A DNA stretch of 64,000 nt, from contig CM059432.1 of the NCBI GenBank assembly GCA_030390025.1, positions 65,288,001-65,352,000 on the forward strand, read 5' to 3'. The notes beneath the pieces were generated by a model. It made no database searches, was not told the origin of the DNA, and saw nothing but the letters and a program-made list of their open reading frames with translations. The stretch comes from Squalus acanthias. Its lineage: Eukaryota. This document shows positions 43,284 to 64,000 of this stretch, one piece after another. Within the stretch, counting starts at the first letter, position 1, and the number at the start of each line of letters is the position of its first letter. Made by a program: the position numbers and the translations under genes.

Positions 43284-44946
43284 GTATTTCTATATCTTTA
43301 TAAAGCAATGTTGCTGCTAATAAAGAACCACACTAGAAAGTACCGTAAAAGGAAAGGGTGTTGTGCTGAATTGCTGCACAATACTAATTATAGTTAGTAA
43401 CACAGCCTCTCAGTCCTCCATTTTTTAAACTGACTGGGAAAAGGCATTTTGTGCAAAATTCTATGTACAGTAATATCGTAAAATTGCTATCCAATGACAT
43501 CATTCTTGTGGACAATAGATTGTTGGTAGTTCTCTCAAGTTACATGGTCAGTTGAAAGGAATTTTATAATGTCACTGGAAAAATACATTTTTATTATTTG
43601 TTCACGGGTTATAGATGATGCTGGAAAGGCCAGCATATACATTGCCCATCCCTACTTGCCCTGAGAAGGTGGTGGTGGGCTTATCTGACCCTGGTGGATC
43701 TTGAATTACTGCAGTCTTTGTGGTGTTGGTTCTCCCACAATGATATTAGGTAGGGTGTTCGAGGAACTTGTTTAAAGACTGTTACATCTCTAACATCTTC
43801 CAGTTCTGATGAAAGGTCACAGACCTGCAACATTAACTTTGTTTAAGAACATAAGAACATAAGAATTAGGAACAGGAGTAGTCCATATGGTCCCTTGAGC
43901 CTGCTCCATCATGCAATATGATCATGGCTTATCTTCGACCTCAACACCACTTTCCCGCCCGAACTCCATGTCCCTTGATTCCCCTAGTGTCCAAAAATCG
44001 ATCTATCTCAGCCTTGAATATACTCAATGGTTCAGCAACCACAGCCCTTTGGGGTAGAGAATTCCAAAGAATCATAACCCTCTGAGTGAAGAAATTCCTC
44101 CTCAACTCAGTCTTAAATGGCCGACCCCTTATCCTGAGACTATACCCCCTAGATCTAGACTCTCCAGCCAGGGGAAACAACCTCTCAACATCTACCCTTT
44201 AAATTCCCCTCAGAATCTTATATGTTTCAAGAAAGGAGGGAGAGAGAAAACAGGGAACTACAGGTCAGTTAGCCTGACATCAGTTGTCGGGAAAATGCTG
44301 GAATCCATTATTAAGGAATTGGTAACAGGGCACTTAGACAATCATAATATGATTAGGCAGAGTCAACATAGTTTTATGAAAAGGAAATCATGTTTAACAA
44401 ATTTATTAGAGTTTTTTGAGGATGCAATTAGCAAGGGAGATAAAGTGGATGTAGTATATTTGGATTTCCAAAAGACATTCGATAAGGTTACTACACAAGA
44501 TATGGCTCATGGGGTTGGGGTAATATATTAGCATGGATAGAGGATTGATTAGCAGACAGAAAACAGAGAGTAGGGATAAAAGGGTCATTTTCAGGTTGAC
44601 AGACTGTAACTAGTGGGGTGCCGCAAGGATCAGCGCTTGGGTCTCAGCTATTTACAATTTATATTAATGACTTAGATGAAGGGACCGAGTGTAATGTCTC
44701 CAAGTTTGTTGACGATACAAAGCTAGGTGGGAAAGTAAGCTGTGAGGAGGACACAAAGAGCCTGCAAAGGGATATAGACAGGTTAAGTGAGTGGGCAAAA
44801 AGGTGGCAGATGAGTATAATGTGGGGAAATGTGAGATTATTCACTTTGGTAGGAAGAATAGAAAAACTGAATTTTTTTAAATGGTGGGAAACTATAAAAT
44901 ATTGGTGTTCGGAGAGATTTAGGTGTCCTTGTACAGGAAACACAAA

Positions 44947-46827
44947 GGCTGGAATTTTACGAGCGCTGAGAGAATGGGTTCGGAGGCGAGTCTGCTGTCA
45001 AAATAGAAAAGATTGACAACGGGTCGGGAATCCGCTGTCAAGCCGCCTCCACGTGAGTCTCCCAAGTGTTGGGTCTGTTAGCGCTGAACAGACCCGACAC
45101 CAAGCGGCAGGGCAGACAAGTTAGATCATTAAATGCATTGTTAAGAGGCAATTAAATCTTATTTTAAGCTTACCTTTAGATTTTTAGAGTTTGTCAACGG
45201 CTTCCCCGCTGCTCGGGGATCACGTCAGGTAAGGAGGTCGGGTGTTGTGTCAGCATGGGATGATTTACTTACTTGACAGCTGCAAATGGTCTATAAAAGC
45301 TTCCATTTCATAGGTGTTCACTTTCCAAGGTTAGAAGCTCTTGCTTACTGCATTTGGAAGACAGATTGAGCTTTATGCAGCTAGCAAGTGTTTGAAGCAA
45401 ACTCTCTATCCAGTGTCACCTCATTGGAACAACCTCTCTCACCCTTGACAGATCGCTTCTGTCATCTCATTCTCACCTCCCATCTATTCCATCAGCATCA
45501 GTGCCCTTGAAAAAATCCATCTTGGTCCACAGAATCCCAACATGATCAGCGCCAACACCAACATCACCGGGCACACCAGCAGCACCAACAACAACACCAA
45601 CCTTCTCCGCAATCACTTGATGCTGCACAGGACATCAACACCCGACCACATTGCTTCCGGGAGGCCAGGGATGGCCTCACCATGGCCAGATTTACTTCAC
45701 GTGACACTGCACACCCTGGCTGCCACATGGTGCGCCAGGTTAACACCACCCCACACTAAGACAATAAAGCATCCCTACAATGCCCAAGCCATTCCTTTCA
45801 CACACATCACCATAGCAAGGAGGGGAGGGGGGGCGGGGAGGTACCATTATGTCTCACTGTTCACTGCAACTCATTAAGCCACTTCCAATGGTGCACACAG
45901 ATCTGTCCAAGAACGCAAAGTGTTGAAAATAAAGATTTCAATGTTTGACAGCACATTACCAGAAACTTCACATGAACATTGGCTAAAACACACAAGTGCC
46001 TACCCTGTGTGTTGTTAGTTGGTATGCTTGCAGTAGGATGAGGGTAAGGGTGAGGGGTGGCTAGTGAGATGGGGAAGTGATAATGTAGATAGAGAAGGAT
46101 GGATGGAGGTGAAAGGTCAGTTGGTGTGAGTAAAGATGTGCAGGAGTAGGGTAGGGAAGACAGAGTGATGTGGATGTGATGAGTGGCACACCAGGATGAG
46201 GTTGAGTATGGCTTGGCAGTAACGTTTCGTGATCTACTGAGATTATTGAAAGGTTTGCGCCACTGCTGCCTGGTCCTCCTGATGACATTCCTGCTTGTGC
46301 CCTCCTGTGCAATGTGCAACCAGGCTGCGTAGGTCTCTTCCGCCCATTGGAAGTGAAGAGAACCTCCCTGCATGCATATGGAGGGAGTCATTGAGAGCCT
46401 GGGTGCAGTCATTCACCTTTGTGCTGTGATTGTCAGTGTTTGCAGCACCTCAAAACTGTAGAACACTGACAGCACAACTGTCAAAATCAATTTGGACATG
46501 GCCCCTTTAAGGAAACCGGCTGATGACGCGTCATCAAATGACGTCATCAGACCCGCTTCCTTTTAATTGGCCGGGAATCTCGCTGGGCGGGCTTAAAATC
46601 AATGTAAAATCACTTGGAGAGAGTGGGCTGGAGCAGGCAGCGGGCTGGGACTGCACTACCGACCCCCCCAGCCACCCCGGACCCCGGACCCCGGACCCCG
46701 GACCCCGGACCCCGGACCCCGGACCCCGGACCCCGGACCCCGGACCCCGGACCCCGGACCCCGGACCCCGGACCCCGGACCCCGGACCCCGGACCCCGGA
46801 CCCTCCTCGGTCGGTGAAATCGCAGCC
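44947..46827. mobile_element. Non-autonomous PIF/Harbinger element inserted in CR1
   Basis: Ends GGCTGGAATTTTAC / GTGAAATCGCAGCC; collinear with 27018-30114 but lacks Myb exons 2-3; CR1 resumes gagttagtatgcagg. Confidence 0.85.
46673..46803 (+). repeat. Perfect 7-bp tandem repeat (ACCCCGG)n
   Basis: About 18 exact units just inside the right TIR of the Harbinger element. Confidence 0.97.
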
Positions 46828-47008: not shown

Positions 47009-50000
47009 CAAGAGCTTGAGCACAGAGCTGGGTGAATCGCAATCGGAGTGGATTGCAAGCAGAGTGGAAGAATTTGGTGATAGTTGGAATTTGGTGTAGA
47101 GGAGGTAGGTGGTTTCTCATGTCCAACTCAAAAGGAGGAGTGGAGCCACAGAACCCAAGGACTCTAAGTTAAGTATCTAGATATCTAATATTTATGTTAT
47201 TTGTATTTTGTATTTCAGTGGTTCTTGTTAAACTTGAGTAAATAATTTTGTCTTTTTTCTCTCTAAGTTAGGACAGTGGGTTAAACTAAGAAGTTTAGTT
47301 AGTAGTCTAATAAATACAGGTATGGCAGTGCACCTCAGTCCTGTCGAATGCATATTCTGTGCCATGTGGGGAGTCCAGGATGCTTCTCGTGTCCTGACCA
47401 ACCACATGTGCAGGAAGTGTCGTCAGCTGGAGGAGCTCGAGCAGCGGCTGGCATCCTGTGAGGCTGAGAGTTCTGTGGATAGCACGTTTCAGGAGGTGGT
47501 CACCCTGCAGCTTAAGAGTTTGCAGGCAGAGGGGGAATGGGTGACCGCCAGACAGACAAGGAGGACCAGGCAGGTAGTGTAGGAGTCCCCTGAGTGCATC
47601 TCAGCTCCCTAACCGGTGGTGAGGGCGATGGTTTTTCTGGGGAGTACAGCCAGAGCCAAGCCCACGGCACCATGGGTGGCTCAGCTGTATGGGGGGGGGG
47701 AGGGCGGGTGTGGAGGATGAAGGTCAGAAAAGCAATAGAGATAGGGGACTCAATAGTTAGGGGAATAGACAGGCATTTCTGCAGCCACAGATGTGACTCC
47801 AGGATGGTATGTTGCCTCCCTGGTGCCAGGGTCAAGAATGTCACTGAGCAGTTGCAAGACATTCTGAGGGGGGAGGGTGAACAGCCAGAGGCCGTGGTCC
47901 ATATTGGTACCAATAACATAGGTAGAAGAGGGATGAGGTCCTGCAGGCAGAATTTAGGGAGCTAGGAAAGAGATTAATAAGCCGGACCTCAAAGGTAGTA
48001 ATCTGCAGATTACTCCCAATGCTACGCACTTGTGAGTACAGAAATAAGAGGATAGAGCAGATGAATGTGTGGCTGGAGTGATGGTGCAGGAGGGAGGGCT
48101 TTAGATTGCTAAGGCATTGGGGCCAGTTCTGGGGGAGGTGGGACCTGTACAAGTCAAACGGGTTGCACCTCAGCAGGGCTGGGACTAATATCCTAGCGGG
48201 GAGGTTTGCTAGTGCTGTTGGGGAGGGTTTAAACTAGCTTGGCAGGGGGATGGGAACCTGAGGGTAGATTCAGAAGGGAGAGAAGCAAAGCTGGAAATGG
48301 AAGCAAGTAAATTAGTAAGTGAGCTTGTAAGGCAGAGGAAACAAAGGCTAGAAAATAGACAATAAAGGGGTTTGGAAGTGCTTAATGGTATATACTTCAA
48401 TGCAAGGAGTCTAGTGACTAAGGCAGATGAGCTGAGGGCACAGATAGACACATGAAAGTATGATATCATAGCTATTACTGAAACATGGCTAAAAGGGCAG
48501 GAATGGCAGCTCAACATTCCTGGTTACAGGGTTTTCAGATGAGATAGAGAGGGAGATAAAAAAGGAGGGGAGTTGCAATATTGGTTAAAGAAACAATTAC
48601 AGCTGTGAGGAGGGATGATATGTTAGAAGGATCATCAAATGAGGCCATATGGGTTGAACTGTAGAACAAAAAAGGGGCAATCACACTGCTGGGAGTGTAC
48701 TATAGACCCCCAAATAGTCAGAGGGAGATAGAAGAGCAAATATGTCGGCAAATTTCTGAGAAGTGCAAAAATAATAGGCAGTAATAGTAGGGGATTTCAA
48801 CTACCCTAATATTAACTGGGATAAAATCAGTGTAAAAGATATAGAGGGTGCAGAATTCTTAATGCTTTCAGGAGAACTTTTTTAGCCAGTATGTAGCAAG
48901 CCCAACAAGAGAGGGGGCGGTTCTGGACTTGGTTTGAGGGAATGAAGCTGGGCAGGTGGAAGGGGTATCAGTGGGAGACCATTTTGGCAGTAGTGATCAT
49001 AATTCATGGGGTACGGTAACATAATGGTTATGTTAATGGACTAGTACTCCAGAGACCTGGACGTGACATGAGTTCAAATCTCACCATGGCAGCTTGGGAA
49101 TTTAAATTCAGTTAATTAAAATAAATCTGGAATAAAAAAGCTAGTATCAGTAATGGTGACCATGAATCTACCGGATTATTGTAAAAACCCATCTGGTTCA
49201 TTAATGTCCTTTAGGGAAGGAAATCTGCCATCCTTACCCGGTCGGGCCTATATGTGACTCCAGACCCACAGCAATGATTCTTAACTGTCCTCTGAATGGC
49301 CTAGCACGCCACTCAGTTGTCCGCTACGAAAAATTGCAGCAGTTCAAGAAGGCGGCTCACCACCACCTTCTCAAGGCAATTAGGGATGGGCAATAAATGC
49401 TGACCTTGCCCACATCCCATGAATGAATTTTTTTAAAAATCAGTTAGATTTGGCGTAATTATGGAAAAGGACAAAGATAGGCCAGGAGTAAAAGTCCTCA
49501 ATTGGGGAAAGGCCAATTTTACTAAGCTGAGATGTGATTTAGCAAAAGTTGACTGGAAACAGCTACTTGAAGGTAAATCAGTGTCAAAGCAGTGGGAGGC
49601 ATTCAAGGAGGAGATAGTGAGGGTTCAGAGCAAGTATGTTCCCTTAAAGAAAAAAGGTAGGACTCCCAAATCTAGAGACCCCTGGATGTCAAGTGGCATA
49701 CAAGGTAGGATAATGAAAAAAAGGGAAGCTTATGTCAGATACCAAAAGCTAAATACTGCAGAAAGCCGAGATGAGTATAGAAAAAGCAGGAGTGAAATTA
49801 AAAAGAAAATTAGGAAAGTAAAGAGAAAGCATGAAAAAATATTGGCAAGTAAAAGCAAGGAAAACCCTAAGATGTTTTATAAATACATAAAGAGCAAGAG
49901 GATAACTAAAGAAAGAGTAGGGCCTATTAGAGACCAAAAAGGTAACCTGTGTGTGGAGGCGGAAGACATGGGTATGATTTTTAATGAATACTTTGCATCT

Positions 50001-51642
50001 GTCTTCACAAAATAGAGGGACGATGCAGACATTGTAGTTAAGGAGGAGGATGTGTGAAATATTAGATGGGATAAACATCGTGAGAGAGGAAGTATTAAGG
50101 GGTTTAGCATCTTTGAAAATAGATAGATCGCCAGGCCCGGCTGTTAAGAGAAGCAAGGGAGGAAATAGCGAAGGCTCTGACCATTATTTTCTAATCCTCT
50201 CTGGCTACAAGTGTGGTGCCAGAGGACTGCTAACGTTGTACCATTGTTTAAAAGGGAGAAAGGGATAGACTGAGTAGTTACAGGCCAGTCAGCCTAACCT
50301 CAGTGGTGGGAAAATTATTGGAAAAAATTCTGAGGAACAGTATTAATCATCATTTAGAAAGGTACAGATTAATCAAGGACAGTCAGCAAGGATTTGTTAA
50401 GGAAAGTCGTGTCTGACTAACTTGATTGAATATTTTGAAGAGGTAATGAGGAGGCTCGATGAGGGTAGCACGTTTGATGTAGTCTACATGGATTTTAGTA
50501 AGGCTTTTTACAAAATCCCACATGGCAGACTGGTCAGAAAAATAAATGCCTATGGGGTCCAGGTGAAAGTAGCAAGTTGGATCCAAAATTGGCTCAGTGG
50601 CAGGAAGCAAAGGGTAATGGTCGACGGGTGTTTTTGTGACTGGTAGGCTATTTCCAGTGGGGTTCCGCAGGGCTCAGTACTAGGTCCCTTGCTTTTTGTG
50701 GTATATATAAATGATTTAGACTTCAATGTAGGGGGCATGATTAAGAAGTTTGCAGATGATACAAAAATTGGCCTGTGGTCGATAGTGAGGAAGAAAGCTG
50801 TAGACTGCAAGAAGATATCAATGGACTGGTAAGGTGGGCAGAAAAGTGGCAAATGGAATTCAATCTGGAGAAGTTTGAGGTAATGCATTTGGGGAGGGCT
50901 AACAAGGCAAGGGAATACACGATAAATGGTAGGATACTGAGAAGTGTAGAGGAACAGAGGGACCTTGGAGTGCATGTCCACAGATCCCTGAAGTTAGCAG
51001 GACAGGTAGAAAAGGTGGTTAAGAAGGCATATGGGATACTTTCCTTTGTTAGCCGAGGCACAGAATATAAGAGCAGGGAGGTTATGCTTGAACTGTATAA
51101 AACACTAGTTAGGCCACTGCTAAAGTACTGCATACAGTTCTGGTCACCACATTACAGGAAAGATGTGATTGCACTGGAGAGGGTGCAAAGGAGATTTATG
51201 AGGATGTTGCCAAGACGGGAGAATTTTAGCTATGAGGAAAAATTGGATAGGCTGGGGTTGTTTTCTTTGGAACAGAGGAGGCTAAGGGGAGACCTGATTG
51301 AGGTGTATAAAATTATGAGGGGCCTAGATAGAGTGGATAGGAAGGACCTATTTCCCTTAGCAGTGAGGTCAATATACAGGGGCATAAATTTAAAGTAATT
51401 GAGGGGAGTTGAGGATAATTATTTTCACCCAGAGGGTGGTGGGGGTCTGGAACTCACTGCCTGAAAGGGTGGTAGAGGCAGAAACCCTCATCACTTGGAT
51501 ATGCACTTGAAGTGCTGTAACCTTCAAGGCTATGGACCAAGAGCTGGAAAGTGGGATGAGGCTGGATAGCTCTTTTTTGGCCAGCACAGACACAATGGGT
51601 CAAATGGCCTTTTTCTGTGCTGTAAATTTCTATGATTCTAAC
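47009..51642 (+). mobile_element. Near full-length CR1 LINE (ORF1 zinc-finger/zipper plus SGNH esterase; ORF2 APE-RT), disrupted
   Basis: ORF1 VECIFCAMW..CRKCRQL and IGDSIVR..CLPGARV..VHIGTNN; ORF2 YFNARSL, ITETWL, GDFN, YMDFSKAF, FADDT; short CTAAC repeat at both ends. Confidence 0.92.
49008..49438 (+). mobile_element. tRNA-derived SINE with LINE-derived tail, inserted in CR1 ORF2
   Basis: B box GAGTTCAAATC; tail homologous to the LINE end at 16200-16310; CR1 reads ..gatcataattca before and aatcagttagattt after. Confidence 0.75.
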
Positions 51643-52258: not shown

Positions 52259-52409
52259 TTAACCAACAGTTTAAAGCATAATAAACAGAGGAAAAATAGA
52301 TGATTGAGAGACAATGGCAAGTATACTGGTGCCTTCTTTCATAATATATAGAATTGTGTATGGATGTGATCTGTATTATCATTGGCATAGTTAATACAAA
52401 TTCCTCTTG

Positions 52410-53431
52410 TGTAGCAGTTGGCGCAGATGCCATGGATTTTTAGATTATGAACCCTTATTAAAAACTGGATATGCTGCTTGGGGTGGGGGGGGGGGGGGGG
52501 GGGGGCGGCGGGGGTGGTGGCGGGGAAGCAGTGAAAAACCACTCAAGCTGGAGATGACTCATTCATATGGAAACGAACTGTCCTTGGGAACAATGGCCCG
52601 AGAGGCCCACTCCCAAGTCTTGATTAAGTCTTGATGACTCATTGTTCTGGTCAAGATGAACTCGTTATTTTAATCGGCTGGAAGATCGAAATGAGTTCAA
52701 AGACCATTCAAACCTGAGAGGAAGCTTGAAGACCATTCCATTAAAACCACAGACAACGGTCTGTGTATTGGAGGGGTATATTAGAGAGCAGTTTGGATAG
52801 CTCTCTCTCTCTCTCTCTCTCTCTCCTGCCCTCCACACAACGGAACGTCAAGAGGAGCAGAGCCTTGCTCTTCCAACCAAGACCGACTTCGACTAAGGCT
52901 GGGACTCACATGCCGCAAGGTCGGTACGGAACCAGGTAACCGAGACATACAGGAGGAAGCCGCAAGCAAGATCAAAAGGGCAATCTAGGTGAGCATTGCC
53001 AAGCCTACACGCCCACAAGATCACTTAGCTGTGTGAGGGGGTGCCTGTATGTTCCTACCAAACCAGAGGGGGTTTAGTGTTGGAAGGGTCCTGTGATAGT
53101 TTAGTTCACGGGAGGGTGTTTTTAGGCCGTGGTATGTCAGCATGGCAGGGGCTTGTTGGACAAGTCAGGGTTGTACTGTTTTAAATTGTACTGTTGTGTT
53201 CACACTGTGTACTGTATGCGAGTGGAGTGGTTTTTGTCAACCTTAATAAACACTGTACGGGTGAGCCCGAAAACGCTGTCCGTGTTCCAATCTGTCCTCA
53301 GTAATCCCTATCATCCAGAACTTGTAGTAAGGGGGTTTGTGTGCTCGCTATGGGTGGGGCAAAACCACTTACAATCATTGGCGATTGCGGCAGGGGCCAT
53401 AGGAAATTGGCCACCGCAAAAAACGGTTACA
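52410..53431 (+). repeat. 5' LTR (1022 bp)
   Basis: TGTAGC...GTTACA termini; TATA-like TATATTAGA at ~52796; AATAAA at 53245-53250; homologous to 61115-61346 plus 63101-63856. Confidence 0.92.
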
Positions 53432-53435
53432 GATT

Positions 53436-53452
53436 TGGCGACCGCGGCAGGA
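53436..53452 (+). promoter_or_regulatory. Primer binding site, tRNA-Arg(TCG)
   Basis: TGGCGACCGCGGCAGGA, 4 nt after the LTR, is complementary to ..TCCTGCCGCGGTCG-CCA, the 3' end of vertebrate tRNA-Arg(TCG) as I recall it. Confidence 0.85.
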
Positions 53453-53472
53453 TGCTAGGTTGTGGATTAGAT

Positions 53473-55136
53473 ATGGACGGTTTGGAGGGCAAGAGTTCCG
53501 GAATGGAGGACAGAGGTTCCTCCTATGTATTTAAAAAGGTTAACGTATCCCAGCAATGGGTGCTGGAGATGTTGTGCTCTGAGAGTCCCCAGGATAGGGC
53601 CGCAGAGTGGACAGGGAGCAAGGAGCACAGGAGTCCAAAGAGAAGGTGATTTGGCTCCTGTGCTTCCAAAAGCAAGTTCAACTGCTCTGGGAGCAGGTTG
53701 AAAAGCTCAAACACGAGCTGAAGGAGTCTGAAGACAAGTCCGACGTGAGGGGGATAGCTGGGAGTAGATTAGTGGAGGAGTTGCCCGAGGAAAGACAGGA
53801 AAGACGCGCACAGGAAGAGACATCCCGTAATATGGGGGAATACCTGCGGTGCCAGGTTATGGAGGCCAGGTTAAATGAGCAGGCCTTACGGGAGGAGAAC
53901 GCAAGATTAACAACGAGAGCTGATGGTTTGGAGGGTCAGCTAAGGGACATTAAAATAGCTCATAAGGTAGCTAGAAGTAGGGGCTATGAAAACTCTGATC
54001 ACGGTCCCTGCGAAGAAAGGATTAAAAAATTGACCCAAGCCTTGTCTGGGGCCAGAGGCATGGTCTATTTAATGGCACCTGGGGAAACCTGGGTGGAGTG
54101 GGATGAGGAGTGTCAGGAAACAGAGGATAAGGTTCAGGACAGGGAAGTCCCACCGGCGCCGGAAGCGCCACCGAGACCAATGTATCCTCTGCGGCAGCAA
54201 AAGTACGGTCCACTCACACCAAACGGTGACCAGGGCCCGCTGCAGAGCGATTACGTGGTCCCATTCACCACCCTGCAGTTGCAAGCCATGGTAGCAGAGT
54301 TGCCTAAACTAAAACAGGACGGGGACCCCTCAGTTCACTTTACAGAGGTCGAGCAGGTAGGGGGATCAACGGGTGTAGTGAGGGTGAGATCCACAGGCTG
54401 ATGCTGCTCTCCCTTGACGGGAAACTGTATCAGAGCCTGTCCGCAGCCACAAACGGGGCGAGGCACCACAGAGGGGTTGAAAGAGGAGATCCTGAGAGTC
54501 ATGGGGCATACCCAGGGTAGTCCGTTCTCACAAGTGGAACAGTTGGCCGGCGAGGCACCGGCTGCATTTGCGGACAGGCAATGGCCGGTGTACGCAAAGG
54601 CAACTGGAGGTGTGCCAGACCGCGCGCAACTGGTAGGGGTCCCCAGAAATCACTGGCTCAGGACCCTGGTAGCAAACAGCCTGCCACGGATTAAAGCCAA
54701 GGCAGAAGCATGGTTTGACTCCAAGAACCTCGCGAACACGGAGGCAGGCGTGCTCCGGAAATTGGGCTTAGCTTTTAGGGCCGGTTCCGGGGAGTAGGTC
54801 AAACACAAGGGGAGGGTACATGGGATGAAGGCCAGTAAGGGGGATAGGAAGGAATGGCGTCAGGAAGGGGGTAACGCCAACAAGTCTAAGACTTGTTTCA
54901 AGTGTGGGAAGACAGGACACTGGAGGTGGGATTGCCCGGCCCAAAAGGGGGGGTCAGGTCAAGGGGGTCCTCCCGTGCGAAAACCCCAGGTCACCGAGGC
55001 GAAGGAGGCGACCGATGAACTGTTTGATGTTCTGGTGGCCGCCCTTCGCATGGTGCTGGGGAAGGTCAAAGGAAGGCTAGACGCTGCCGTGAGCAACATA
55101 ACGCCGGCCTCACCCACATGTCCGCCTTCCTCCTGA
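53473..55136 (+). pseudogene. gag: gag: N-terminal coiled coil, capsid-like region, one CCHC zinc knuckle
   Basis: ORF pieces 53473-, 53607-54401, 54414-54797 and 54825-55136; CFKCGKTGHWRWDC at 54894-54935. Confidence 0.85.
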
Positions 55137-58100
55137 CTAGAACGCGCCCAGCCTGAGTACCTGTGTCCGCTCACTTTTGATGAGTAGGACAGGCCCTGTG
55201 TTGAGATGGGGGTGGAGACGGTGCAGGGGAGATATTTGGTGGACACCAGAGCTTCCAGCACGGTGGTCCATTCGGAAGACCCGACCAATTCACCCTGGTC
55301 TAACAAGGTCCCATTTAGCCTAATGGAATTCACAGGGAACGAGCAGGTGGGGGCAATGTCCAAACCCCTGAGAATAGAGCTAGGGTCCCTCTGCACCACG
55401 TGCAAGTGCGTGCTAATGAAATGGGAGCAACCAGGGTGTGGAGATTCCTCGGGGCTGATTTCATGTTAGCCAACTGGGTCATTGTGGACCTGAGGAATCA
55501 CTGCCTGTGGGGGGCAGTGGTCTCGGACAAGACAGAGGAGGTGATAGTAATCCCCAGAGATAAGGGAGGAGGGGTAGTGTATGCACCATGAAACCCAAAG
55601 GGAGTTACGACCTGGAACAGTTGGTTAGTAGCGCCCCAGCCCAGTACCAGGCGAATGTACGGGACAACCTTGCCGCATTCGCCACCCATAAACACGATTG
55701 TGGCAGGGTGACCGGGGTAGAGGTCCGGGTGCAAGGGGACCCCATGTCACGGCCACAAAAGCAGTATAGTTTCCCCCGGGAGGCAGAAGCCAACTTGGAG
55801 GCGGCACTGGGATCCCTGGTAAAACAGGGGGTGTTGAGACTAATAGCCACCCACGTGAACTCACCACTCTGGCCGGTGAAGAAACCCGACCAGTCGTGGA
55901 GAGCCACCGTGGACTATCGGGTCCTCAATAAGAACATCCCAGCTTGCGCGCCCACAGTCGCAGCTGTCGCCGATCTGATAGGGAGCATTCCAGCAACCGC
56001 AACCACATTCACAGTGCTGGATATCTCCAACGGGTTTTGGTCGATTCCCCTCAGACGGGAAGACCAATACAAGTGTGCATTCACTTTTAAAGGGCAGCAG
56101 TATACATGGACATGCCTTCCCCAGGGGTTCCACAACAGCCCCTCCATATTCCACCAATGCATGGCAGATGCATTAAAAGGCTTCAGCCGACCCCACCAGT
56201 TAATCCAGTACGTGGACGACCTGCTTTTGTTCTCCGCAGAGGGGGAGAACCATGGGCTACTACTGGACGAGCTGCTAAAGCTATTGCAGGAGGGGGGGTT
56301 CAAGGTCAACCCCAAGAAAGCCCAGATCGGCCAGGAGGAAGTCAAATTCCTCGGGCTGACCGTAAGGGCTGGTTAAAGGGCCATAGACGAAGCTAGGAGG
56401 AAGGCAGTACAGGAGCTACCAGCCCCCAAGAATGTGACCGGGGTAAGGTCTTTTCTGGGACTCACAGGGTACTGCCGGGACTTCATAGAGGGTTACGCAG
56501 CCACGGCAGCCCCTCTGCTTCGGCTCCTCCGCAAGGGAGTCGAGTGGGAGTGGGATCAGAACTGCCACTCTCCTCAAAGGGGATTTGCAGACTGCATCCG
56601 CATTGGGAGCCATTAACGGTGGGGAAGAATTCTTCTTAGAGGTAGTAGCCAGCGGGGATAGCTTGAGTGCAGCGTTGCTCCAGGAGCGACACGGCAAGCT
56701 ACGGCCCGTGGCCTACTCATCTAGGGTTCTCACCGAGGTAGAACGGGGATATTCCAACTGCGAGAAGCATCTCCTGGCCACGCATTGGGCTGTAAAGCGC
56801 TCACAGCCCTTTACAGGATCATCCCTGATAGTTCTACTCACCCACCATACCCCCACTTGGATATTGTTGGACGGGAGAATAAAGGACGGGACAGTGAGCA
56901 GTGCTCGCATTGCCCGCTGGACTTTATTGTTCTCGCAGATGAACTTGAGAGTGCAGGGGTTGACCGAGCCCAAGCTAGCAGCCAACATGATTTACCCAGG
57001 GACGGCCCACACGTGTACAGTAGAAGGGGTGTGGGATGTAGATGAAGGATTCTGGGCCGGGATACACCCGACGGGCCAGGACATCTATAAAGACGTGTTC
57101 TATCGTGAAGGGGGAGCGTCTCACCGGGTGCAAAATCTATGACCCTACGGCTAAAATAGCGAAGGCCATTAAACTCCCAACACCCTGAGCACTCAGCACG
57201 CCGAACTGGTGGCGGTGGCGTACGTGGTCACCCACCCCGACGAGTTCCCCACCCACTACACCATTTGCTCAGACTCTATGTTCACGTGCAACTCATGCAC
57301 GGAATACTTGGCAATCTGGGCCAGGCGCGGATTCAAGTCCGCAGATAGGAAGCCCCTAGCAACAGCACCGCTGCTAGGTAAAATTTTGGAGGCCACAGGC
57401 ACCCAGGGAGATCACTATATTCACAAAGTTAAAGCCCATTCAAAGACAGAGCCCAAGTGGGAGGGCAACCAAAAGGCAGATGAGCTGGCCAAACAGGGGG
57501 CCAGGGAAGGAGTATTCTGGGATCCCTACAAAGCAGGTCCGGTAGCCGCAATCCGGGACAAGGGAGGCACACAGCAGATAGCTTTGGCCCCCGACTTAAA
57601 GCAGGTCCAAGTCCAGGATCCCGCCCTTAAGGCCGTCCTGGTAAAGAGAGAGAATGGGGAGTCCATAGAAGGTCCATTCGGGGCAGCGGACATTAGTATC
57701 AAAGAGGGGATGCTTTTCAAAGGGGATCGGTGGGTAGTCCCAGCGCAGCACCGAGAGGAGTTCCTACAGTTGGCCCATGGGGGCCCGGGAGCGGGACACC
57801 CAGGGCCGGAAACTACTTGACAAAGGGTAGAGGAGGCAGGGTGGTGGCCCCAGCTCAGGGAGGATGTCTGAGTTTTCTGTGCGCACTGTTTGGTGTGCGC
57901 AGCCAATAACCCCGATCCGCAGCACAGGAAAGCCCCCATAGGACACACCAGGAGGGTAGAGGGGCCATGGCGGTCCCTGCAGGTCGATTTCATCGGACCA
58001 CTGCCCACCACTAAAGCAGGCAACAAGTACTGTTTAGTCCTGGTGGACGTATTTTCCAAGTGGGTGGAAGCCTTCCCCTGCTGAGCAGCCACGGCACTAG

Positions 58101-58997
58101 CAACAGCTAGAATCCTGGTGAGGGAAGTGTTCTCCCGGTGGGGGCTGCCACAGGTCGTGGAGTCCGACCAAGGGAGTCATTTCACAGGGCAGGTGATGCA
58201 GGCCACCTTAACTCTTGGGAATACAAGGGAAGTGGCATGTGGCTCACAGCCCCCAGTCATCGGGGATTGTGGAGCGCATGAACCGGACACTGAAAGAAAG
58301 ACTGAGGAAGGAGATAAGCCCGTTCCCGCAGAGATGGGACGAGGTCTTGCCTCTAGTCTTAATGTGTGTCCGGGCCAGCCCCTCCAGAAGCACAGGGTAG
58401 TCGCCACACGAGCTTATGACCGGGAGGATTCTGCGCACCCCAACCCATGTGTTGGCGCCGGTCCACACCGAAGCGCAGGTCAGGGAGGTAAACCGGGACA
58501 GGTTTGTCCAGAATCTGTACGAGACTTTAAAACAGATTCACTGGCAGGCAGCCAGTAACCTGGGGAGCCAGTACCAGAAAAATCGGCTGCTGTTAGAACC
58601 CCAGAGAACCCACGAGTGGGAGGTGGGAGACCAGGTAATGGTCCGTAATTTCGCCCGAGTAGGGGCGTTCGAGCCGCTGTATATGGGGCCCTATAATATC
58701 GTGGATAACGCGAGCCCCATAGTATATGCAGTAAAACTCCCGAAACGCACAAAATGGTTTCATGTAAACCAGTGCAAGTTGTTTAACCCCGAGGTGGGGA
58801 AAACAAAGGCCAAGAGGCACCAGGGCACAGCCATGAGCCTGGTGGACGCGGGTCTTCCTCCCATGGTGTGGGACGATGATGACCCGGAGGACGGGGCGGT
58901 AAGGAGGAGCAGTCGGGTCCCACGGCCTAGGGTGCCGTGGATGCCTCCCTTCTTGCCGACCGCGAGCCACAAGAGGCCTCAATGGGAGAGGTCTTAA
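55137..58997 (+). pseudogene. pol: pro-pol: protease, RT, tether RNase H, RNase H, integrase with GPY/F
   Basis: YLVDTRAS and FLGADF (protease); NSPLWPVKKPD, VLDISNGFW, LPQGFHNSP, YVDD (RT); PVAYSSRVL (tether); QHAEL, SDS, KVKAH, GNQKADELAK (RNase H); [33 protein letters not shown] (integrase). Confidence 0.93.
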
Positions 58998-59156
58998 ATG
59001 GGGCGCTCGTTAATGCGGCAGGGAACACTGTAAATATTTTGTAAATAATCAAAACCAGATCCGTGGAGGAAAACCCTCGCACAGAACGGAACTGTTTCGC
59101 TTTTGTTTTGGCAGGGAACCAAAGGAGATCAGAGGAACAGGGAATTTACGTGTGTA

Positions 59157-60916
59157 TGTGGGGGTCGGAACGGGTCTGCCCGGCAGGTGTGTCGATTGCC
59201 TTCTTGCGGCGGTGGCAGGATTCCGGGGCCGGGATCGGATGGGATCAGAGTGGGGACTCCTGCGTGATCCCAGACCCTCCCAACACAGTAAATTCCACAG
59301 AACCGGTAGCACACCAGAAGCCCCTGCCCACAGCCCCACCGGTACAGGAAACACAGATTAGTTGCCCCGCCACCACACCGGGACCGAGGAATGGGTTAGT
59401 GTTCATCCCGACCGGCAAGATCTTGTACCAAGACGTCCACTACGAAGTCGCATCGGTCATTCTAAATTTAACTCGGGTATAGCTGCCCCAGTGGTGTCCG
59501 GTAGAAGTTACGGGGACGTGAATCGGGAAAGTCTGTATGATTTAACGGTAAACCATCGCGTTGGTTCGGGGAGATATAGACGGGGGGTATTTAATGATGC
59601 GGCTACAGCCTTCAGCATAGGCACGTCCATTATCAACAGTATGGATGATGCACAGTTGCAGATGCAGGTCAACACCTTAAGGGACCAGCTGCGAAAGATA
59701 CTGGGGGAGGGTAACGTGCTAGAGGGGTCGGAGTTACGGGAGGACCAGGCTATGACGATACATTTAAAGGACGTCATAGCCGAGCTGGAGGCGCACGCTC
59801 AGACGATCAATAGTTTGATCAGGGAGGATCAGAATGCCTCGGCGCAGGCAGCAAAAAAAACCCGATGCGTGTGTGTTGTACGGTGCGTGGCTGCTGAACG
59901 AAGGGCACAGTAATTTGGAGGACCTACAGCAAGGTCGCGTCTCTTTGTGGGTCAGCAACCGGCACCTCACTGCGCTCAGCCCGTACGAAAATTTAATGAG
60001 CCCGTGCCAACTCCGACTGGCCTCAGCGGCATACCCGGTCCCAGTTGATTGTGGCCAGTCCAACCACACTGTAATGGGGACTGTACTCCGGATGCCAGTA
60101 ATGGGCGGGTCACCGCGGCCGGCACCGGTATACCGAGTAGAGAATATTGGCGTCCTAAGGGACGGGGTGCACATGCGACATCATGGGGCCCCACCGTTTG
60201 TTGTAAAGTGGGAGAACGCCATGACCGGCACTGACCTCAATGGATGCCAAAGCAGGGGCGCGCACGTGGTGTTGTGTCCCCAGCATTTGAATGCGTTTAA
60301 TTGGCCGGTGTGCGGGTTTGAAGCAGAGGGTGCGGAGCCCATTAATTGCACCATGGAGGTGATGGCCCAAAGCCACGTTCCACCTCAGGTAGCATATGCG
60401 GGCAGAGGGACGTACTGTGTCACGACAAGCGTGGACCAGTACTGGGTACACAACGACACTTGGTGCCCGGTCACCGATAAGACTTTCTGCTTCAAACCCC
60501 ACACAGAAGTTCAGGTGGCTCAAGAGCGCATCATTCCCATTCCAGAGCCCACCACGGTACACCTCACGGTGAACGACACGGTACAGGACCTGCAGCAATA
60601 CGTAACATGGTTCAGGTATGAAATTCCTCCTCTGCCCGAACACCTCACAAAATTAATAAAGGAAGTTGAACTCTCCCAAAAGCATTTCTATACCCTTGAG
60701 CAATGGAACAGGGAAACAAGGAATGAGATAAAAAAATTGGTTTCTTCGCCATGGTGGGACATCGGTCTGAATATCGAGATTCCCCCATGGATTCGTGTGA
60801 TTTCTCATGTGATTGTAGTAGTGCAATGTGTGTTAGTGTTTTACCTTCTCCGGTTATCATGCAGAAAGCGAAGTAAAACACTCCGAAACCGGTGGCAAGC
60901 TTTGATTAAAGAATAG
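59157..60916 (+). pseudogene. env: env-like class I fusion glycoprotein
   Basis: Three ORF pieces; furin site RYRR (59572-59583), fusion-peptide-like GVFNDAATAFSIGTSII, heptad region, Cys-rich region, N-glycosylation sequons, C-terminal TM (VISHVIVVVQCVLVFYLL) and basic tail. Start codon uncertain. Confidence 0.85.
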
Positions 60917-61103
60917 CCCGGAGTTGACTGTCTGTTTGTATATATACCTGTAACTGTGATGTGATTTGTTGTATAAAGTGTGAGATACAGGACCCTGGGG
61001 TAAAATTTGATGTACGGTTTGGTTGGGATATACAGTGCGCCTCCCGCAGCGGAAGACGACAGAACTTTTGATGATATTTCTGTTTGGGAAAAGTTGAAAT
61101 ATC

Positions 61104-61112
61104 AAAGGGGGG
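61104..61112 (+). promoter_or_regulatory. Polypurine tract
   Basis: AAAGGGGGG followed by CC and the TG start of the 3' LTR. Confidence 0.8.
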
Positions 61113-61346
61113 CCTGTAGCAGTTGGCACAGACGCCATGGATTTTTAGATTATGAACCCTTATTAAAAACTGGACAGGCTGCTTGGGGGTGGGGAAGCAG
61201 TGAAAAATCACTCAAGCTGGAGATGACTCATTCGTATGGAAACGAACTGTCCTTGGGAACAATGGCCCGAGAGGCCCACTCCCAAGTCTTGATTAACAAG
61301 GCTGATGACTCATTGTTCTGGTTAAGATGAACTCGTTATTTTAATC

Positions 61347-63090
61347 CGATAGCAAAATACTGCGGATGCTGGAAAGTTGAAACAACAACAAAAAACGCTG
61401 GAAAAATTCAGCAGGCCAGGCAACATCCATGGAGAGAGAAACAGAGTTAACGTTTCAGGTCGAAACCCTTCGTCAGAACTGAGAAAAAAGCAGGAAATGA
61501 AACAGATAAAAAAGCAAGGGGGAGGCTGTCGTCTTCCGCTGCGGGAGGTGCACTGTATATCCCAACCAAACCGTACATCAAATTTTACCCCAGGGTCCTG
61601 TATCTCACTTTATACAACAAATCACATCACAAAGATGTGCGGGTTAGGTTGATTTGGCTATGATAAATTGACCCTTAGTGTTAGGGGGGATTAAATGCGT
61701 GGGGTTACGGGGATAGGGTGGGATATGTTAGGGGGGTTTAAATACGTGGGGTTACGGGGATAGGGTGGGATATCTGTACTGTGGGGATTCTGTGATTCAC
61801 AGTTACAGGTATATATGTGGTAGGGGCCGAGGTTATGATCTGAAATTGTTGAACTCGATATTGAGTCTGGAAGGCTGTAAAGTGCCTAAACGAAAGATGA
61901 GGTGCCGTTCCTCGAGCTTACACTGAGCTTCAGTGGAACAATGCACGAGGCTGAGGACAGTGAGGTCTGAGTGGAAGTGGAGAGGTGAATTAAAGTGACA
62001 AGCGACCGGAAGCTCGGGGTCACCCTTACGGACTGAACGGAGGTGTTCCGCAAAGCGGTCACCCAATCTGCGTTTGGTCTCCCCAATGTAGAGGAGACCA
62101 CATCGTGAGCAGCGAATACAGTATACTAGATTGCAAGAAGTACAAGTAAATCGCTGTTTCACCTGGAAGGGGTGTTTGGGGCCCTGGAGAGTGGGAAGGG
62201 GGGAGGTATAAGGGCAGGTGTTGCATCTCCTGCGCTTGCACGGGAAGGTGCCGGGCGAGGGGGAAGGGGTGCTGGGTGTGATAGAGGAGTGGACTAGGGT
62301 GTCTCGGAGGGAGCGGTCCCTACGGAATGCTGAAAGGGGAGGTGAGGGGAAGATACGTTTGGTGGTGGGATCACGTTGGAGGTGGCGGAAATGGCGGAGG
62401 ATGATCCGTTGAATGTGGCGGTTGGTGGGGTGAAAGGTGAGGACAAGGGGAACTCTATCGTGGTTCCGGGAGGGAGGGGCCGGGGTGAGGGCAGAAGTGT
62501 GGGAGATAGAACGGACACGGTCGAGGGCCGTGTCGACCACGGTAGAGGGGAATCCTCGGTTGAGGAAAAAGGAAGACATGTCGGAAGCACTGGTATGGAA
62601 GGTGGCATCGTCAGAGCAGATGCGGCGGAGATGGAGAAACTGGGAGAACGGAATAGAATCCTTACAGGAGGCGGGGTGGGAGGAAGTGTAGTCCAGGTAG
62701 CTGTGGGAGTCAGTGGGCTTGTAGTGAATGCTGGTCAATAACCTATCCCCAGAGATGGAGACGGAGAAGTCGAGGAAGGGAAGGGAAGAGTCGGAGATGG
62801 ACTATGTGAAGGTGAAGGCAGGGTGGCAAAGTGAATGAAATTGTCTAGTTCAGGGCGAGAGCAGGAAACGGCACCGATACAGTCATCAATGTACCGGAAA
62901 AAGAGGTGAGGGAGGGGACCCGAGTAGGACTGGAACAAAGAGTGTTCCACATATCCCACGAAAAGGCAGGCATAGCTAGGACCCATGCGGGTACCCATAA
63001 CAACACCTTTGATTTGGAGGAAATGAGTGGAGTCAAAGGAGAAGTTGTTCAATGTGAGAACAAGTTCAGCCAGGCAGAGGAGGGTGGCGG
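61347..63090 (-). mobile_element. 5'-truncated Penelope-like element (RT C-terminus plus GIY-YIG endonuclease) with chimeric 3' region
   Basis: QIKGVVMGTRMGP, RYIDD, YKPTD, CxxxxCxxC linker, VYCIRCSRCGLLYIGETKRRL; 10-bp TSD TATTTTAATC (61337-61346) / TATTTTACTC (63091-63100). Confidence 0.92.
61445..61480 (-). ncRNA. Minimal type I hammerhead ribozyme in the Penelope tail
   Basis: Minus strand AGTT-CTGACGA-AGGGT-TTCG-ACCT-GAAACGTT-AACT: intact core, stem II with UUCG loop, stem I AGTT/AACT. Confidence 0.8.
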
Positions 63091-64000
63091 TATTTTACTC
63101 GGCTGGAAGATCGAAATGAGTTCAAAGACCATTCAAACCTGAGAGGAAGCTTGAAGACCATCCCCTGAGGCCATGTGTCCATTAAAACCACAGACAGCGG
63201 TCTTTGTATTGAAGGGTTATATTAGAGAGCAGTTTGGATAGCTCGCTCTCTCTCTCTCCTGCCCTCCACACAACGGAACGTCAAGAGGAGCAGAGCCTTG
63301 CTCTTCCAACCGAGACGGACTTCGACTAAGGCTGGGACTCGCATGCCACAAGGCCGGTACGGAACCAGGTAGCCGAGACGTACGGGAGGAAGCTGCAAGC
63401 AAGATCAAAAGGGCAATCTAGGTGAGCATTGCCAAGCCTACACACCCACAAGATCACTTAGCTGTGTGAGGGGGTGCCTATATGTTCCTACCAAACCAGA
63501 GGGGGTTTAGCGTTGGAAGGGTCCTATGATAGTTTAGTTCACGGGAGGGTGTTTTTAGGCCGTGGTAAGTCAGCACGGCAGGGGCTTGTTGGACAAGTCA
63601 GGGTTGTACTGTTTTAAACTGTACTGTTGTGTTCACACTGCTCGTACTGTATGCGAGTGGAGTGGTTTTTGTCAACCTTAATAAACACTGTACGGGTGAG
63701 CCCGAAAACGCTGTCCATGTTCAAATCTGTCCTCAGTAATCCCTATCGTCCAGAACTTGTAGTAAGGGGGTTTGCGTGCTCACTACGGGCGGGGCGAAAC
63801 CACTTACAATAATTGGCGATTGCGGCAGGGGCCATAGGAAATTGGCCACCGCAAAACTTGTGACTATGTCTAGAAAATATGAAATACATATTTCCCACTT
63901 TCCCTTGAATAGGGTTATTCAGTACAATGGGGAAATGTTATCACCTTTGGTTCTTTTGCTCCATGTTTTTCATTCAGCAGCCTGATGATATAAGTAGTCC

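Follow-up and report, generated by a model that had tools for sequence, protein, structure and literature searches.

F-type envelope (Env) proteins have been described in lokiretroviruses, whose Env resembles the viral fusion protein F (PMC7947760; PMC9040795; PMC8922424), and in errantiviruses (bioRxiv 2023.10.26.564294), and a wide survey has touched on them in retroelements (PMC12583693). The Env of foamy viruses also shares the F core (PMC11468914). In the available portions of this literature, an F-like Env is regarded as a peculiarity of lokiretroviruses and foamy viruses, and orthoretroviral Env as unrelated. Relatives of the snakehead retrovirus (SnRV) are the main endogenous retroviruses (ERVs) of the coelacanth (PMC4977317), and the elephant shark carries an SnRV-like lineage, CmiERV lineage I (PMC4422223). 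The window analyzed here is a 64,000-nt stretch of Squalus acanthias (assembly GCA_030390025.1, contig CM059432.1, positions 65,288,001 to 65,352,000), and all coordinates below refer to it. It holds a decayed but complete long terminal repeat (LTR) element at 52410-63856, running from 5' LTR to 3' LTR, with an env copy at 59157-60916. This element most likely represents a multi-copy ERV family of a cartilaginous fish that combines an SnRV-clade polymerase with a class Ib (F-type) Env core inherited within an old retroviral lineage, a reading given a probability of roughly 0.7.

The env copy comprises the following features.

59131..59142, + strand: deletion junction (~500 nt lost) at a 12-nt direct repeat, located from sister loci and public-run contigs
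59143..59377, + strand: remnant end of a probable immunoglobulin (Ig)-like domain and a Pro/Thr-rich linker
59378..59571, + strand: F2-equivalent core of the N-terminal subunit, with two strands and the heptad repeat C (HRC) helix; the structural match to F begins here
59572..59583, + strand: furin site RYRR, with the R-X-K/R-R motif also found in sister frames
59584..59643, + strand: putative fusion peptide, placed by position (mean Kyte-Doolittle [KD] value 0.78; low model confidence there)
59656..59930, + strand: heptad repeat A (HRA) and central helices (model helices 282-301 and 319-374), with a frame change at an A-run at ~59855-59864
59931..60560, + strand: Cys-rich beta domains (F domains III, I, and II), from the model and structural matches
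60635..60742, + strand: heptad repeat B (HRB) helix (model helix 609-639)
60782..60916, + strand: transmembrane segment, basic tail of ~20 aa, and stop

An earlier note, made from the letters of this stretch, had proposed an F-protein topology for this Env, and most of the elements it listed were recovered. These included the RYRR site, two heptad peptides (59656-59703 and 59764-59820), the Cys-rich domain (12 Cys in the 365-aa frame 59819-60913), the second helical region, the basic tail, and the transmembrane segment, whose best 19-residue hydrophobic window starts at 60791 (KD 2.24). The ~440 residues placed after the cleavage site were counted as 443 codons up to the stop at 60914-60916. 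A search of the Env of this copy for CX6CC, CXXC, and immunosuppressive domain (ISD)-like motifs found none, as the note had said of the first and last. Its three breaks are also real: the F2-equivalent core contains a stop at 59480-59482 and, near 59505, a deletion with a frame change, and the frame changes again at the A-run.

A structure model predicted the Env core to be a class Ib fusogen and not of the gamma type. Domains I-III were nested and built from both subunits in the model, and a basic cleavage site, a fusion peptide assigned by position, HRA, HRB, and a transmembrane segment followed one another in this order. The comparison with F proteins that the earlier note had proposed was made with a natural sister frame, and F-type proteins alone occupied the top ranks. 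The structural alignments to F spanned 275-344 residues, beta domains included, with agreement between two programs and two libraries, and the match started at model residue 175, as against residues 26-38 of F. The hallmarks of a gamma-type (class Ia) Env were absent, as none of the above motifs was found and the anchored subunit is 443 aa and not short. The note had held that a best match to gamma/epsilon or foamy Env would speak against its topology; this test has lost its meaning, since foamy Env and models of walleye epsilonretrovirus Env share the F core.

Additional matches to the F-type model were observed among predicted structures. In BFVD, the Env of walleye epidermal hyperplasia virus 1 (WEHV-1) matched with an E value of 7.2e-10 and that of walleye dermal sarcoma virus (WDSV) with 4e-6; the Viro3D source table scored both viruses 0 for class I matches. 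A fish filovirus glycoprotein matched as well (E 1.5e-9).

Sister copies revealed that the N-terminal subunit was once much longer. Among 29 loci picked by the C-terminal frame, 13 were uninformative at 59131-59142, while all 16 informative ones carried 483-555 extra nt (mostly ~500) at this point; 30 of 30 loci picked by the N-terminal domain did so too, by construction. Contigs of four public runs from three studies showed loose ends at 59131-59139 in every case. Near 59505, 24 of the 25 loci that were informative carried 57-59 extra nt. The deletion took away the signal peptide along with most of the N-terminal domain, and the Met at 59157 is internal. In the natural sister frames, the signal Met and the cleavage site lie 328 and 333 aa apart, the F core begins at about residue 241-246, and 442-453 aa follow the cleavage site. 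The short N-terminal subunit of the earlier note was therefore an artefact: the F-type topology stands on the fold, but the argument from a short subunit fails, because it rests on a deletion in this copy. The same junction occurred at three genome sites, of which the other two (L120 and L122) have different flanks, 93-94% identity, and none of the other breaks of this copy. Either a sub-lineage lacking the signal peptide was copied, or deletion at the 12-nt repeat happened more than once.

None of the 29 translated sister loci retained an uninterrupted frame from the signal Met to the transmembrane segment. The furin motif R-X-K/R-R was kept in 18 of the 22 sister frames that cross the site, and dN/dS in env was 0.10-0.34, in frames chosen to be stop-free and with some dS values near saturation; the Env layout is therefore not due to chance. 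The low dN/dS in env between subfamilies also suggests that the family spread largely by infection.

Judging from these translations, the Env of the family carries ~210-240 extra N-terminal residues ahead of the F2-equivalent core. It begins with the signal peptide and an N-terminal module (~190 aa), continues through a linker rich in Pro and Thr to the F2-equivalent core of ~90 aa, and ends with the furin site and the long anchored subunit. The module was conserved in sister copies, including a Cys...Trp...G-x-Y-x-Cys pattern, under purifying selection like that on the core. PF13927 matched in 17 of 21 members (best E 0.001, under the cut-off), all eight weak matches in the PDB were light chains, Atlas neighbors were mostly Ig families, and UniRef labels a Chiloscyllium homologue as Ig-like. 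The module thus probably adopts an Ig fold, and receptor binding, by analogy, is its slightly favored role. Gamma-type Env is already known to include IgV-like receptor-binding domains (RBDs; bioRxiv 2024.03.17.585361). When two distant homologues were compared by profile, the core aligned but the module did not. Three Env homologues of 739, 723, and 519 aa (P0006, P0014, and P0053) are annotated as host genes in bamboo shark and frogs, and the first two are likewise extended at the N terminus.

The polymerase pointed to the SnRV clade. Across a 47-residue block of reverse transcriptase (RT), counted by hand from published alignment rows with 3 of 24 lokiretrovirus (Loki) rows included, SnRV shared 36 residues. 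The seven other rows compared shared 19-27: WDSV 27, feline foamy virus (FFV) 26, simian foamy virus (SFV) 24, Loki-Lca 24, Loki-Bsp 22, murine ERV-L (MuERV-L) 21, and Loki-Str 19. A tree of 36 RT rows, in which SnRV, foamy, and Loki references were not included, placed the element inside the retroviruses with support of 99/99. Relatives by RT or Env were found in Heptranchias, Pristiophorus, Chiloscyllium, Mustelus, Heterodontus, Scyliorhinus, a skate, the coelacanth, and frogs. Close env relatives (share of words 0.29-0.42) also occurred in sequencing runs of several organisms, indicating that the subfamily is present in more than one host species.

Several observations weigh against the reading favored here. 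The model is a monomer of a natural sister frame and not the protein of this copy, with a mean predicted local distance difference test (pLDDT) score of 60.5 and a predicted template modeling (pTM) score of 0.48; TM-scores were 0.2-0.36 by query length, and root-mean-square deviations were large. No sequence-level match to PF00523 or any solved F was found, and Baculo_F was matched weakly (E 0.0011) by one relative alone. The fusion-peptide-like stretch claimed earlier does exist as a 20-mer directly after RYRR, but its hydrophobicity is only modest. The Ig matches all fell under curated cut-offs and came from members that are not independent, and the module's own structure model had a pLDDT of 35 and no usable fold. 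In the RT tree, the 15-row group with coelacanth and frog elements had support of only 82/92, and the best solved RT in the PDB was that of a foamy virus (E 1e-43), the most important counter-evidence, although no SnRV RT was among the PDB rows listed. Additionally, the Env tail of SnRV is 136 aa long and its genome carries accessory open reading frames (PMC12193657), whereas the present tail is ~20 aa and there is no room for a 3' reading frame.

For the F core, an old inheritance among retroviruses is no less likely than capture. The earlier note had proposed that the envelope was captured from, or is shared with, a non-retroviral fusogen lineage; sharing is supported, but capture is not shown. 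A tentative extension, held at somewhat less than even odds together with its corollary, is that the ancestral Env of retroviruses was of class Ib and that foamy viruses, lokiretroviruses, the SnRV clade, and walleye epsilonretroviruses all retain it. Each lineage would then have added its own receptor module, here N-terminal and possibly of host Ig origin, and class Ia Env would have replaced the F type in other orthoretroviruses.

The strongest competitor, judged unlikely though still a serious one, is that recombination supplied an SnRV-clade backbone with an F-type env from a lokiretrovirus, a mononegavirus, or another F-bearing virus; the capture proposed in the earlier note belongs here. 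Identity to any F is 9-16%, which argues against a recent donor, and Env homologues at 20-30% identity extend from sharks to frogs alongside the RT relatives. The fold is also common to the Envs of foamy and walleye viruses, and differences in structural Z scores are sensitive to conformation and to the RBD inserted in foamy Env.

A foamy-like ERV (FLERV) of sharks with a reduced foamy Env is improbable. Shark FLERVs have been reported, one of them in the ghost shark with pol alone detected (PMC5512871), the best solved RT match is foamy, and foamy Env has the same fold. Against this, RT agreement with foamy viruses was 24-26 of 47 as compared with 36 for SnRV, the signal peptide is of the cleavable type, the core runs ~85-90 aa to the cleavage site with no large insertion, and an accessory region is absent. 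The Gag CCHC knuckle (PF00098, E 2.8e-6), the in-frame gag-pol across a stop, and the tRNA-Arg primer-binding site are likewise foreign to it. Foamy virus Gag is not known to carry a Cys-His (CCHC) box, and foamy Pol is expressed separately from Gag.

Less probable still is a lokiretrovirus, which would be the first in a cartilaginous fish. An F-like Env with an RXKR site and a dual RNase H are Loki features (PMC7947760), and the Env of Loki-Xtr shows, by eye, the same order of short motifs as the present core. The dual RNase H is not diagnostic, however, because it is common to all retroviruses. A motif comparison (not a tree) found PFG in 24 of 24 Loki RT rows, while the present RT has PQG, as do canonical retroviruses, and the RT block matched Loki at 19-24 positions against 36 for SnRV. 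The Envs of Loki-Aro and Loki-Xtr begin the F core right behind the signal peptide, and Loki was found in none of six chondrichthyan genomes screened (PMC7947760). Finally, the idea that the F match merely arises from long helices and a weak model, the Env being a divergent one of the gamma type, which could draw on the low pLDDT, the chance of high Z for helical models, and the missing sequence-level match, is largely refuted by the extent and concurrence of the alignments over the beta domains, the exclusively F-type top ranks, the lack of CX6CC and ISD, and the long anchored subunit.

By analogy with paramyxovirus F and foamy Env, the protein would trimerize and be cleaved by furin, with both subunits building the nested domains. 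After triggering, HRA would extend, the fusion peptide would insert, and HRB would zip up to form a six-helix bundle. The env message might be spliced through an acceptor at 59114. Because the virus has no separate attachment gene, receptor binding is tentatively assigned to the N-terminal module, as in the N-terminal modules of coronavirus spikes or the inserted foamy RBD. F has been viewed as a minimal scaffold to which receptor modules can be added, either at the N terminus or between subunits (PMC11468914).

The remaining features of the provirus are as follows.

52410..53431, + strand: 5' LTR, TG...CA, ~1020 nt, with identical start and end in sister copies
53436..53453, + strand: primer-binding site complementary to tRNA-Arg(UCG), 18/18 against the host tRNA-Arg(tcg) gene plus CCA
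53598..55136, + strand: gag with interrupting stops (PF00098, E 2.8e-6) and a CCHC zinc knuckle at ~54888-54938
55134..55140, + strand: gag stop TGA followed by CTAG, with protease in frame, as in sister copies; probable readthrough
55564..56373, + strand: reverse transcriptase, SnRV-like, with YVDD near 56209
56570..57502, + strand: tether (degenerate RNase H; PF17917/PF17919), then RNase H (PF00075), a dual RNase H
57737..58997, + strand: integrase, broken, with weak H2C2, rve, and SH3-like matches under the cut-off
59094..59114, + strand: pyrimidine tract and CAG, probable env splice acceptor, just upstream of the env start of the sisters
61104..61112, + strand: polypurine tract, directly 5' of the 3' LTR
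61115..63856, + strand: 3' LTR in two pieces (61115-61346 and 63088-63856) on either side of a later 1.7-kb insertion; the final ~10 nt are absent

The TGA was found in 19 of 19 sister copies and the TGA-CTAG junction, presumably a readthrough context, in 17 of 19. All integrase domains were present in the relative P0059. The primer of SnRV is tRNA-Arg. The intron-containing tRNA-Arg(UCG) that primes this family occurs in long tandem arrays with a period of ~1.6 kb (G000 C26, ~38.99-41.9 Mb; L093, L094, and L099), and other units of these arrays also carry tRNA-Ser and tRNA-Lys. About 190 nt separate the env stop from the polypurine tract.

This copy cannot make Env, having lost the signal peptide and gained one stop and two frame changes, and the element is an ordinary dead provirus. 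The Kimura two-parameter (K2P) distance between its LTRs was 0.043 over 967 sites. The age is poorly constrained, at 43 Myr with a rate of 0.5e-9 (from PMC10699275), 97 Myr with 2.2e-10 (from PMC4422223), and 10 Myr with a mammalian rate. The family includes at least 115 env matches at 63-94% besides the locus itself (112 candidates scored of 10795 in the 3.7-Gb genome) and at least 150 RT matches at 84-100% (150 scored).

The insertion in the 3' LTR (61347-63087) is bounded by an imperfect 13-nt duplication. It contains a SINE-like piece (61357-61480), a 47-nt tandem pair, an inverted 97% copy (61526-61631) of the provirus's own 60955-61062, and a minus-strand Penelope-like frame with GIY-YIG. 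CTTG at 52406-52409 and 63857-63860 may be a 4-nt target-site duplication, an uncertain assignment as the 3' LTR lacks its last ~10 nt. Upstream of the provirus lie LINE fragments (44600-45016 and 47238-51400), presumably of the CR1/L2 type, and a perfect 7-nt tandem repeat of ~20 copies (46660-46806).

F-type Env in retroelements is already known; what is new here is the combination of an SnRV-like backbone, a class Ib fusogen, and a probable N-terminal Ig module. No publication was found that calls the Env of the SnRV clade or of walleye epsilonretroviruses F-type, in the available portions of, for example, PMC12193657, PMC13709493, PMC5512871, PMC10699275, and bioRxiv 2024.03.25.586437, and earlier work may cover part of this. 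An SnRV-like polymerase with an F-type Env is a hint that retroviruses have had this kind of envelope for a long time. If this pairing and the walleye matches are true, class Ib fusogens also occur in lineages now classed as Orthoretrovirinae, and existing sequences would allow a direct test of where retroviral Env came from. An ancestral F-type Env, if true, would allow a choice among the four scenarios that PMC7947760 left undecided. The extra module would give retroviruses a third arrangement for joining a receptor module to the F scaffold.

Among known systems, the F proteins of paramyxoviruses and pneumoviruses (1ztm, 3maw, 8tvg, and 6apb) gave the best structural matches over the whole core, but at 9-16% identity, and they lack an N-terminal module and use a separate attachment protein. 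Baculovirus F, errantivirus F-type Env, and lispivirus G belong to the same fold family (E 6e-13 to 1e-8; bioRxiv 2023.10.26.564294), although errantiviruses are Ty3/gypsy elements of invertebrates and the present RT is retroviral. Lokiretrovirus Env shares the F-like core, furin site, fusion peptide, coiled coil, and transmembrane segment, and its element the dual RNase H (PMC7947760), whereas the present element has a non-Loki RT, ~210-240 extra N-terminal Env residues, and a chondrichthyan host. Foamy virus Env is also class Ib (PMC11468914; 8rm0 and 8rm1), but its RBD is inserted before the cleavage site and it has two membrane spans, in contrast to an N-terminal extra module, one transmembrane segment with a signal peptide, and a non-foamy gag-pol here. 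SnRV, whose clade includes ERVs of shark, coelacanth, and amphibian hosts (PMC4422223; PMC4977317; PMC12193657), is the closest in RT among the published rows compared.
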